64,000 nt of DNA from a virus: the UHGV virus genome UHGV-1963645; one strand, given 5' to 3'. This document shows, one piece after another, positions 56,620-57,546 of the stretch. How positions within the stretch are numbered: position 1 is the stretch's first letter; each line of letters starts with the position of its first letter. A model generated the notes under the pieces. It did not search any database. It saw only the letters and a list, made by a program, of their open reading frames with translations, and was not told where the DNA came from. Made by a program: the position numbers and the translations under genes.

Positions 56620-56764
56620 CCTCTCACTCCATTATTTAACGAATAAAAAAGCTGCGGTGCCGGGTGCCTCCCAGTGTCCTTTGGCTGGTTATCCACCGTG
56701 GACGGGGAAACAAGGAGAAATGAATGGACTGATATAACCATTTCCCCGCGTGCGCTTAGCCGCA

Positions 56765-57546
56765 TTCACCGCAACGGAAAGAGCATTCTTGGTGGACCTG
56801 TAGATTGGGATATGAACCCGTTACAGGAGAATGCTCTTACCTGTTACGTGCTCCGTTTCGTGGAGCTAACGGCGGGTGATCAGACCGCACCAGACTGGAC
56901 TTATTTCAGCGTTATGCTCATGCCAGAGAATCAAACTGTGATGGTCGGTGCTGAACTCCGACACAGGGTTGTAGCAAGCCCCGCAAAGCGCGCACTACTG
57001 TAGTTGCGGCACATCAGCCTGTGCATTCACCACAATGTTGAGAACACTGGTTGTCACGCTGCAACGCAACATTTATTCGTAGATTGGGATATGACCCCGT
57101 TACGCCAGTGTTCTCAACGTTATAGTGCCGGTTACGGTTCCGGCCAGGCCTCTTCCTCAACGGGGTGTTCTCCATACGGACTACCGTTTATTGGTCGTTC
57201 CTGCGGTTTATGTTGTGAAGCCAGATGCTTATCTTCTGGTTGCTTCAAAGAGCTGCACTTCATCACAACGGTAAGAGCACTCGATGCATTTAAGCCAAGC
57301 CCCATAAGGGAGAATGCCCTTACCTGTTGTGTTGTGATGACCGGTGCTGATCTCCGGCTTGCGGTTATTTCAGACTCTCACGGGCGTTTAATTGCCCCGC
57401 CGAACAGCTCTTTTCCGCAATAGCTGCAATGTCTTTCGCGCATCAGCCTGCGCATTCATCACAACGGTAAGGGTACTTCGTAGGGATTCGAACCCTCTGC
57501 CAAGCACGGCGATCTCCGACGTCGCAAAATACCCTTACCTGTTGTG
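56765..57546. repeat. array of four paralogous long imperfect hairpin elements abutting tRNA-Thr
   Basis: elements at about 56765-56850, 57012-57130, 57259-57340, 57441-57546; stems built from CACAACGGTAAG / CTTACCTGTTGTG; loops share GTAGATTGGGATATGA(A/C)CCCGTTAC; one has a GGTTCGAATCC T-arm-like motif. Confidence 0.6.

Follow-up and report, generated by a model that had tools for sequence, protein, structure and literature searches.

RNase III stems punctuate polycistronic RNAs, as in the early mRNAs of phage T7, the rRNA operon stems and the N leader of phage lambda. Non-coding structured RNAs are also co-transcribed with phage transfer RNA (tRNA) genes, examples being the species 1 and 2 RNAs of T4 (rnaC and rnaD), GOLLD and ROOL. 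STnc100 and PasD are prophage-encoded, Hfq-associated small RNAs (sRNAs) of Salmonella and pathogenic E. coli (bioRxiv 10.64898/2026.05.13.724894; PMC12370729). Surveys report transfer-messenger RNAs (tmRNAs) of phages only for cluster C mycobacteriophages and Bacillus phage G, together with an RNA of mycobacteriophage DS6A that comprises the tRNA-like domain only and is a reported tmRNA inhibitor; no further tmRNA was found among the 543 RefSeq phage genomes surveyed, which should include P1 but do not name it (PMC4131195, PMC11915505). The locus described here lies in a stretch of 64,000 nucleotides (nt) of UHGV virus genome UHGV-1963645, hereafter the window. The phage is P1-like and of the RCS47 type (the region is 98.9% identical to RCS47 and ~98% identical to P1 itself), and the locus comprises five long RNA hairpins, termed H1 to H5, which stand among tRNA genes and two further kinds of structured element, termed the S and E domains. 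Structured small RNAs of phages and prophages are a known kind in general, and the hairpins and S fall within it. On the best reading, the hairpins are minus-strand RNA stem-loops in the C1-repressed ban operon leader of P1-like phages, and on balance they appear to be the conserved junction stems of a non-coding RNA island that is shuffled horizontally, in which they probably serve as sites of RNA processing and as joints for recombination.

Coordinates are given as positions in the window, with RNAs read from the minus strand. A preliminary description, made from the sequence of the window, had noticed four long hairpins next to the tRNA genes; each of its sequence observations holds, and a repeat search recovered the shared arms, a shared loop motif, a T-arm motif and the inverted pairs among H1-H4. 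As RNA, H1-H4 fold at -35 to -47 kcal/mol, and the fold z-scores are -5.0 for H4, -6.0 for H3, -7.1 for H2, -5.8 for H1 and -4.4 for H5, with 0/200 dinucleotide shuffles folding as stably for each hairpin. The stem consensus of the H module is CACAACAGGUAAGrGCA paired with UGCyCUUwCCGUUGUG, around a variable cargo loop. The 5′ arm directly follows whatever module comes before it, be it the CCA end of a tRNA, the final pseudoknot of E, the 3′ strand of an S domain or a terminator, and the 3′ arm passes without a gap into the closing helix of S, of a tRNA or of another module downstream. The stem of H2 spans 23 base pairs (bp) and displays GUUGAGAACACUGG in its distal part where the other hairpins have GGUAAGGGC, with 22/23 pairs kept. 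The loop motif GTAGATTGGGATATGA(A/C)CCCGTTAC, previously ascribed to two of the loops, is present as two copies of 25 nt that are 96% identical, at 56800-56824 in H1 and 57079-57103 in H2, and these loops have GUAACGGGGUCAUAUCCCAAUCUAC in common.

The remaining details of the hairpins extend what had been seen before. H4 starts 2 nt past the CCA of tRNA-Thr and contains the T-arm motif GGTTCGAATCC (GGUUCGAAUCC as RNA) at 57494-57484, in agreement with the description of an element that follows tRNA-Thr and carries a T-arm in an incomplete cloverleaf. Its loop forms a tRNA-like core, with a GCGA/UCGC D-like stem and the canonical T-arm but neither anticodon arm nor CCA, and the same cargo recurs directly after E in locus L037, with compensatory changes in the stem adjacent to the T-arm. 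ARAGORN and the Rfam tRNA model found no cloverleaf in the hairpins and detected just the three real tRNAs in the window. A fifth copy of the arm, noted upstream of tRNA-Asn, lies at 57984-57969 and is not a lone half-site; it is the 5′ arm of the complete hairpin H5, whose counterpart in phage D6 has a better-matched 3′ arm. G-U pairs are present in all five hairpins (1-5 each), and the fold in the sense of the tRNAs is more stable than the antisense fold in 5/5, by 3.7-10 kcal/mol (-37.9 vs -31.8 kcal/mol for H5); neither a plus-strand transcript nor a DNA palindrome would be asymmetric in this way. The structures are real and strand-specific, forming on the tRNA strand. The locus is not a CRISPR array, as had been judged before, for the repeats are inverted hairpin arms at an irregular spacing of 196-261 nt and the would-be spacers are conserved structured RNAs. 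A small hairpin, GCUCCACGAAACGGAGC (56850-56866, minus strand), directly precedes long hairpins, also in L009, L013, L037 and L039, and has a covarying stem, e.g. GCCACACGAAACGUGGC.

The hairpins are conserved well beyond the window. The 5′-arm motif ACAACAGGUAAGRGCA occurs in at least 120 viral contigs of IMG/VR, and a complementary arm lies at most 240 nt downstream in 119 of the 128 distinct arm contexts, unrelated phages included. The loops of these homologous hairpins are 35-176 nt long and comprise at least 67 types. S follows the 3′ arm in 79/119 hairpins and other modules follow in the remaining 40; real tRNA genes begin right after the hairpin GUUGUG in L250, L305 and L315. Upstream of the 5′ arm stand the last pseudoknot of E (31 contexts), a T-run (41) or CCA (8). 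As in the window, the sense fold is the more stable in 112/119 hairpins (mean difference -6.9 kcal/mol, Wilcoxon p 6e-20). Viewed from the side of S, a hairpin 3′ arm abuts the domain in 76/128 S loci, compared with 9/128 shuffled controls, and the hairpins abutting S use at least 61 different arm sequences that still pair, so complementarity is kept while sequence changes. Loop types recur between distant phages: that of H3 in L020, L027 and L076, that of H4 in L037, and the H1/H2-like motif ACGGG..CAUA.CCCAAUC in L038 and phage mEp460. By this recurrence, the loops are cargo that is conserved, not junk. T-arms were rejected as a general property of the loops, the T-loop motif being present in 14/119 of them and T-arms occurring in 11/128 cases upstream of S against 17/128 in the downstream control.

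Every hairpin 3′ arm continues into a conserved segment, GUUGUG(G/A)UGAAUGCGCAGGCUGAUGCGC, and ~100 nt further this segment, the S domain, is closed by GCCGGAGAUCAGCACCGG(U/C)CA(C/U)CACAAC. The H-S junction is ~90% identical across the non-coding regions of many unrelated phages, and the exact 22-mer of the S junction was found in at least 120 IMG/VR contigs (123 distinct contexts, high-GC contigs included). Across 28 diverse copies that were aligned, 7/9 pairs of the closing stem (9 bp) have changed on both sides, with 95.5% of cells paired, and the observed covariation was reached by 0/500 column shuffles. The loops of the two S hairpins are complementary to each other (GCUGA:UCAGC), one sequence carrying the compensatory combination GUCGA:UCGAC. 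The canonical copy in the window, Sa, comprises a closing stem GUUGUGAUG/CAUCACAAC, a hairpin GCGCA-GGCUGA-UGCGC, a variable core and a hairpin GCCGG-AGAUCAGCA-CCGGU that abuts the 3′ closing strand; Sa copies are 98% identical in lambdoid phages. Because the last hairpin abuts the 3′ closing strand, as the T-arm abuts the acceptor strand, the S fold would resemble the upper half of a tRNA. Sb retains the 5′ start and the 3′ hairpin with its closing strand and is visible as repeats only, the covariance model R1 failing to detect it.

Sd, a divergent copy, connects S to a described family. R1 matches it at 56775-56651 (23.9 bits, E 0.001), its fold z-score is -3.4, and against Rfam STnc100 (RF02076) it scores 32.7 bits (E 1.3e-4), under the gathering score of 47, aligning with model positions 31-147. 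Sd is followed by GCUUUUUUAUU, a U-run and candidate 3′ end at which the terminator scan made no call. In contrast, Sa, Sb and Sc gave no match to STnc100 at E<=10, the canonical S is unrecognised by any Rfam family in the window and in 10 further loci, and a search of genuine STnc100 (L063) with R1 gave no match. S nevertheless shares the layout of STnc100 and PasD, in which a closing stem of 7-9 bp (GGUG../..CACC) encloses AAU and a first hairpin, then a variable core, and finally a last hairpin set directly against the 3′ closing strand; the setting is alike too, a prophage or phage near Q and lysis genes. The canonical S differs in its own near-invariant first hairpin (GCGCA-GGCUGA-UGCGC) and last loop (AGAUCAGCA), in being preceded by an H hairpin, and in P1-like phages in being tandem and tRNA-linked rather than a solitary terminated sRNA. 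Since Sd matches below threshold, the canonical S lies outside Rfam and R1 misses genuine STnc100, S is by these comparisons a large, distant and undescribed relative of the prophage sRNAs STnc100 and PasD with Sd as an intermediate, and Sd and the S domains are probably sRNAs of the STnc100/PasD type. Two other identities were tried for S and rejected: the put RNA of HK022, where the best R1 score was 12.7 bits (E 0.12; HK022 22-40.7 kb), a test of homology only, and rnaC/rnaD of T4, R1 being without a match in the T4 cluster.

Following H5 upstream revealed E, an element of ~180 nt at 58163-57985 that is homologous to a segment of four phages (L005-L008) and has the features of the mRNA-like domain of a tmRNA. 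Its 5′ segment reads GGGUUUUCG..GCGAC..UUUGCGG..GAAAC. Within it, AAAU is followed directly by the frame GCA AAC GAU GAU CUG AUG AUG GUA GCG GCC UAA, encoding ANDDLMMVAA and a stop at 58104-58072, with GCA as the resume codon (58104-58102). A degenerate E pattern matches at least 120 viral contigs, and in 98/98 distinct E contexts the tag frame has exactly 10 codons and a stop (96 UAA, 2 UAG). There are 17 variants of the tag peptide, all of the form AN(D/E)(D/E/N)xx(L/M)xxA, with synonymous variation (codon 10, for example, is GCC, GCU or GCG), whereas an overlapping AUG frame varies from 5 to 13 codons. The tag frame is conserved like coding sequence. RNAalifold places the stop codon within a helix-5-like stem with compensatory changes, and two H-type pseudoknots follow this stem. 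The first has good covariation support, its stem 1 occurring in at least 4 forms and its loop pairing with downstream sequence as CCGA:UCGG, GUCG:CGAC, CCAG:CUGG and CCAA:UUGG, while support for the second is weaker (CGCAC:GUGUG, with C:G changed to G:C in 3 sequences).

E is similar to tmRNA in its A-rich ..AUAAAU context before the GCA resume codon, its 10-codon tag with the stop in a helix-5-like stem and the H-type pseudoknots that follow, and by eye in its UCAUGGUUAGCGAC..UUUGCGG..GAAAC, comparable to the start of the tmRNA D-loop and helix 2, UCUGGAUUCGAC..UUUGCG..AAAC. Like the known phage tmRNAs, it is phage-borne. The only Rfam matches on E are sub-threshold tmRNA models: tmRNA_permuted matches 58177-58072 with 24.1 bits, ending exactly at the stop codon, and the Salmonella siphovirus L007 with 29.4 bits (gathering score 47), and beta_tmRNA scores 14 bits against a gathering score of 84. 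E differs from tmRNA in that it has no acceptor 3′ strand, T-arm or CCA that pairs with its 5′ end; an acceptor stem with G3:U70, a T-arm and a 3′ NCCA, the marks of a tRNA-like domain, are lacking. ARAGORN called 0 tmRNAs in the window and in 239 loci; neither the vicinity of E nor the 64-kb window as a whole yielded a T-arm followed by 7 nt and NCCA that could pair with the invariant E 5′ end (NNGUUUUCG), and searches for UUUUCG(U) partners and for AAAA[UC]NN+NCC (an NNGUUUU acceptor strand) returned only real tRNAs. One candidate acceptor strand, the 3′ strand of H4 (ACGAAGU), was rejected, as in L037 it changes together with the 5′ strand of H4 itself while the 5′ end of E is invariant. 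Within the 5′ part of E, both sides of a candidate pairing CUUUGCGG:CCACAAAG are changed in L008-type variants, where the register differs.

The E. coli SsrA tag, ANDENYALAA, is common to enterobacteria, and the tags of E (..LMMVAA, ..LAVA, ..LMAA) are unlike it. L007 and E. coli ssrA agree in 34/51 nt over the resume context, the tag start and the stop/helix-5 region, which is not significant alone (z 0.4-2.3); recent capture of host ssrA was therefore rejected as the origin of E, the similarity being limited to the tag region. While ssrA is expected in every E. coli, a blastn search with E at 'distant' sensitivity matched 660/5426 complete E. coli genomes, so it was not picking up ssrA. E looks like a new kind of tmRNA, a tmRNA-like domain without the tRNA-like part, and would in this respect be the mirror image of the DS6A RNA. 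E probably acts on trans-translation. It could be one half of a split tmRNA, with the tRNA-like partner provided in trans, or, by analogy with the DS6A RNA as its counterpart, a decoy for SmpB or stalled ribosomes. A tentative and broader account, possible but doubtful, would have P1-like and many unrelated Enterobacterales phages carry a tmRNA derivative with its own proteolysis-type tag under purifying selection and no tRNA-like domain in cis, which, with H4-type mini-domains, S and tRNAs, would hijack, re-tag or block host trans-translation, the hairpins serving as processing or assembly joints.

The positions of these elements are collected in Table 1. On the minus strand, dmt is followed by Pban/Op72, ~650 nt of non-coding DNA, tRNA-Asn, tRNA-Thr, the ~900-nt hairpin region and then the downstream ORFs (open reading frames) and tRNA(CAU). 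The order within the island is E, H5, X, tRNA-Asn, tRNA-Thr, H4, Sa, H3, Sb, X1, H2, Sc, X2, H1 and Sd. No promoter of the sigma-70 type was found within 55400-58500, where 3.3 are expected, which fits one long transcript. The segment X, perhaps another module of the island, holds UUUACGGGUAUAUCCCGUCAUGC, recalling the loop motif of H1 and H2, as well as a GGCGC-GGU-GCGCC hairpin. The 'dicF-like region' of the P1 annotation has no Rfam match, its terminator ends 9 nt upstream of E, and the C1-controlled promoter could give rise to it as a short RNA of its own. The tRNA(CAU) has a P1 counterpart annotated as tRNA-Ile2 (ileX-like), and its anticodon is therefore probably lysidine-modified. The ORFs for a 275-aa lipoprotein and a 78-aa membrane protein replace tciA/B/C of P1.

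Table 1. Features of the RNA island and its flanks, in window positions.
Feature	Positions	Strand	Evidence or remark
dmt	58373-60637	minus	
Pban promoters and bivalent C1 operator Op72, presumed transcript start	58353-58398	minus	P1 annotation mapped at 98.5% identity; inverted repeat at 58353-58384
'dicF-like region' of P1 annotation, ends in strong intrinsic terminator	58157-58258	minus	
Strong intrinsic terminator	58192-58173	minus	terminator scan
E domain, tmRNA-like mRNA-like domain	57985-58163	minus	
H5 hairpin	57904-57984	minus	
X, conserved non-coding segment from H5 to tRNA-Asn	57701-57903	minus	kept in P1, D6 and L015
tRNA-Asn(GUU)	57626-57700	minus	ARAGORN; Rfam tRNA 73.9 bits
tRNA-Thr(UGU)	57548-57623	minus	ARAGORN; Rfam tRNA 74.9 bits
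H4 hairpin	57460-57546	minus	
Sa, canonical S domain	57331-57465	minus	covariance model R1 83.7 bits, E 1.5e-18
H3 hairpin, loop type ..GGGGCUUGGCUUAAAUGCA..	57261-57339	minus	
Sb, truncated S-like remnant	57208-57264	minus	repeat families only
X1 spacer	57128-57207	minus	
H2 hairpin	57028-57127	minus	
Sc, S domain	56935-57036	minus	R1 74.9 bits, E 2.3e-16
X2 spacer, ends in small hairpin GCUCCACGAAACGGAGC	56851-56934	minus	
H1 hairpin	56765-56850	minus	
Sd, divergent S / STnc100-like domain and U-run	56640-56775	minus	
78-aa membrane-protein ORF	56383-56619	minus	
275-aa lipoprotein ORF	55575-56402	minus	
Third tRNA, anticodon CAU	55472-55547	minus	ARAGORN: tRNA-Met

The preliminary description had passed over the terminator that separates the promoter from the RNAs, the alternating S domains, the tmRNA-like domain beside the fifth arm copy and the very wide spread outside P1-like phages. 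Two siphoviruses, L006 of Klebsiella and L007 of Salmonella, have E, one hairpin, one S and tRNA genes in this order behind a TTGACA-17-TAGATT promoter. The N4-like phage L008 has E, hairpin and S without a recognisable promoter and with tRNA genes downstream, and the Ackermannviridae phage L005 has them in a non-coding stretch where neither a recognisable promoter nor a tRNA was found. In the loci examined in full, S lies downstream of E on the same strand, and S is present in at least 52/99 further E loci. In L007 (2120-2220) and L008 (2770-2830), two unrelated virulent phages, a motif ..AUGUAGGGGUAUGUA(U/A)GG(G/A)UU(A/G)CG.. was observed in a hairpin just upstream of the tRNA genes. A tRNA gene lies within 1 kb in 20/123 S contexts and is on the same strand in 20/20. 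Many of the remaining S contexts are flanked by the Q antiterminator and holin genes, or by CI and N/early-left genes (e.g. mEp460), and there a terminator often stands directly before the hairpin and another after S. An Rfam isrK match of 67 bits was seen in mEp460 near antirepressor genes (L004 82-158), and a high-GC viral contig with an S domain gave an RT-15 RNA match of 143 bits (L023 6593-6775).

Among the complete E. coli genomes, E is located mostly on P1-like plasmids, and Sa is present in 845/5426; neither is ever annotated as RNA, both being unannotated or covered by 'hypothetical protein' coding-sequence calls. The E pattern was found in 4/185,579 species-representative genomes, indicating an accessory, phage-borne element. 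A 5.9-kb contig of a metagenome genome labelled 'Bacillota bacterium' (L242, JAFAFU010000017.1) carries a P1-type E with a dmt-like flank and is most likely a mis-binned enterobacterial P1-like contig. Comparison of P1-like phages reveals exchange of modules. Reference P1 is without window 57455-57281, i.e. Sa and the 5′ part of H3 (net difference 197 nt); the alignment blocks of P1 and the window overlap by 23 nt inside the repeated 3′ arm, and both end-points of the indel lie in arms, as expected for recombination between arms. The tRNA genes of other relatives differ: D6 carries a tRNA-Ser flanked immediately by an S domain and a hairpin, and the gene in this region of Ro157c2YLVW is a tRNA-Tyr.

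These results argue strongly that the hairpins are functional RNA modules of a conserved island; that they take part in RNA processing is a more tentative proposal, to which we would give somewhat less than an even chance. In the mechanism envisaged, H stems of ~20 bp would punctuate a polycistronic non-coding transcript and serve as sites for double-strand-specific cleavage of the RNase III type, acting together with RNase P at the tRNAs, and cleavage would free and insulate the neighbouring tRNAs, S RNAs, E and loop RNAs. As the two arms are reverse complements, each could pair with the arm on either side and enclose the loop cargo or the adjacent S or E module, and such pairing would leave every module clamped by a helix once cleaved. 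As DNA, the arms may act as joints for the exchange of modules between phages by homologous recombination. The likeness to known RNase III stems lies in long imperfect stems of ~20 bp with bulges, placed exactly between functional RNA units; the H stems differ in carrying conserved sequence and cargo loops, needless for simple processing, and their cleavage is a prediction.

Several points weigh against this proposal. RNase III cleavage is suggested by the length of the stems only, and the arm on the other side of a module is an alternative partner that would close S or E instead of the hairpin. The arm sequence is ~90% identical across unrelated phages, which is more than a double-stranded processing site needs and so suggests a sequence-specific partner of the arms. 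The RNA-seq paper on P1vir lists only 'upl' as expressed for the region. Moreover, the strong terminator at 58192-58173 sits between Pban and the island, and transcription of the island would need read-through or an unrecognised promoter. The earlier proposal of co-transcription from 58355-58382, a position that coincides with annotated Pban/Op72 of P1, is plausible but depends on read-through of this terminator.

The preliminary description had left three origins for the hairpins, and processed small RNAs are favoured among them, given the tRNA-strand-specific folds, the conservation in unrelated phages in the orientation of the tRNAs and the direct contact with RNA modules. A related but different possibility, which seems unlikely, is that each H+S unit is an Hfq-dependent trans-acting sRNA of the STnc100/PasD type, in which the hairpin is a 5′ stem-loop, the seed lies in the loop or in the core of S, the hairpin plays no part in processing or punctuation, and the units are tandem regulators of host mRNAs. 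Sd, with its sub-threshold STnc100 match and U-run, fits this picture, as do lambdoid H-S units, which lie in the CI/N leader or between Q and holin genes and often have a terminator behind them, and the fact that STnc100 and PasD are themselves prophage sRNAs found on Hfq (bioRxiv 10.64898/2026.05.13.724894; PMC12370729). However, Sa and Sc do not match STnc100 even at E<=10 and genuine STnc100 is missed by R1, none of Sa, Sb and Sc has its own terminator, and H also stands before real tRNAs and after tRNA CCA ends, unlike a private 5′ stem of an sRNA; the core of S, invariant across very different hosts and high-GC contigs too, looks like a protein- or RNA-binding fold, not like an sRNA that bears a seed. 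Terminators also bear on a quite improbable alternative, in which S, with H, is a cis-acting element like put or nut that renders polymerase terminator-resistant and lets it read the long, terminator-containing leader through to the tRNAs and ban. Terminators commonly flank H-S directly, a strong one precedes the island of P1, and S is placed just where antitermination operates, in PL leaders, upstream of N or in phages that lack N, and between Q and the lysis genes; yet R1 finds nothing significant in HK022 (12.7 bits, E 0.12), S is also present in phages with Q or N, which have protein antiterminators, and in P1-like phages it lies downstream of the tRNAs in three to four copies, where it would be unneeded.

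The other two origins put forward before fare less well. Imperfect inverted repeats in several copies, the same arms in unrelated phages and the P1/window indel end-points in arms would be accounted for if the elements acted as DNA, either as selfish palindromic repeats, like miniature inverted-repeat transposable elements (MITEs) or repetitive extragenic palindromic (REP) elements, or as recombination sites that are merely transcribed. There is little to recommend this, since G-U pairs make the tRNA strand the more stable by ~7 kcal/mol (112/119 elsewhere, 5/5 in the window), orientation to the tRNAs is fixed (20/20) and position is fixed as well, abutting RNA modules; no transposase was seen, nor were target duplications, which were not searched for systematically. 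Strand asymmetry and fixed position relative to the RNA modules count against MITE-like repeats. Decay of tRNA genes from a once larger cluster applies at most to H4, with its canonical T-arm and D-like stem, and is very improbable as a general origin. The T-loop motif is present in 14/119 homologous loops, and D6 and Ro157c2YLVW have tRNA-Ser and tRNA-Tyr genes in the region, but most loops display no tRNA feature, ARAGORN and Rfam call no tRNA in the hairpins, the conserved arms are not tRNA sequence, and loop families recur in distant phages with structures kept by compensatory change, where pseudogenes would decay. It is scarcely credible, finally, that the region encodes plus-strand proteins. 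Reference P1 annotates plp and upl over the hairpin/S array (window 56674-57423, L001 2324-2893), the ORFs exist in the window with 139 and 109 aa, and reads assigned to 'upl' are present in P1vir RNA-seq, though an RNA would equally give them. These ORFs have no Pfam match, measure 125/63 aa in P1 against 139/109 aa here, and lie where P1 and the window differ by a 197-nt module, not a multiple of 3; covarying RNA structures lie on the opposite strand, and other annotators have placed the name 'Plp', in RCS47 and for the window, on the different, real gene of the 275-aa lipoprotein. The plus-strand ORFs are probably spurious, i.e. mis-annotations.

Compared with rnaC/rnaD of T4, GOLLD and ROOL, the island is a chain of small interchangeable modules rather than one large RNA, and no homology was detected: there is no Rfam match to GOLLD or ROOL, and the sole YrlA match (22 bits) overlaps the junction of two real tRNAs. 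The T4 species 1 RNA rnaC (L130 1909-2172, with rnaD) contains 5′-..AUCGAUUCGAGG.., and a canonical T-arm (CCGGGUUCGAAUCCCGG) and then CGUUUCGUACA stand at its end; inspected by eye it resembles a tmRNA/tRNA-like domain, with no covariance-model relation to S. Neither Rfam 15 nor the searchable literature has the canonical S, the H junction stems or the grammar of E-H-S-tRNA, and a full-text literature search returned no paper with the conserved motif strings.

P1 has been a laboratory workhorse for decades, and ~2.5 kb of its ban-operon leader are unannotated or covered by doubtful ORFs on the opposite strand (plp, upl). The modules found there are present in 12-16% of complete E. coli genomes and also among Stx-converting phages, and Klebsiella, Salmonella and E. 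coli have unrelated virulent phages that carry them. If the present reading is correct, it would supply the grammar by which a widespread class of non-coding RNA loci in phages is built and tie STnc100 and PasD to a much larger structured family. It would also add a new kind of phage-borne tmRNA derivative, making phage interference with ribosome rescue testable, and would identify conserved stem sequences as the joints by which unrelated phages exchange RNA genes in modular form.

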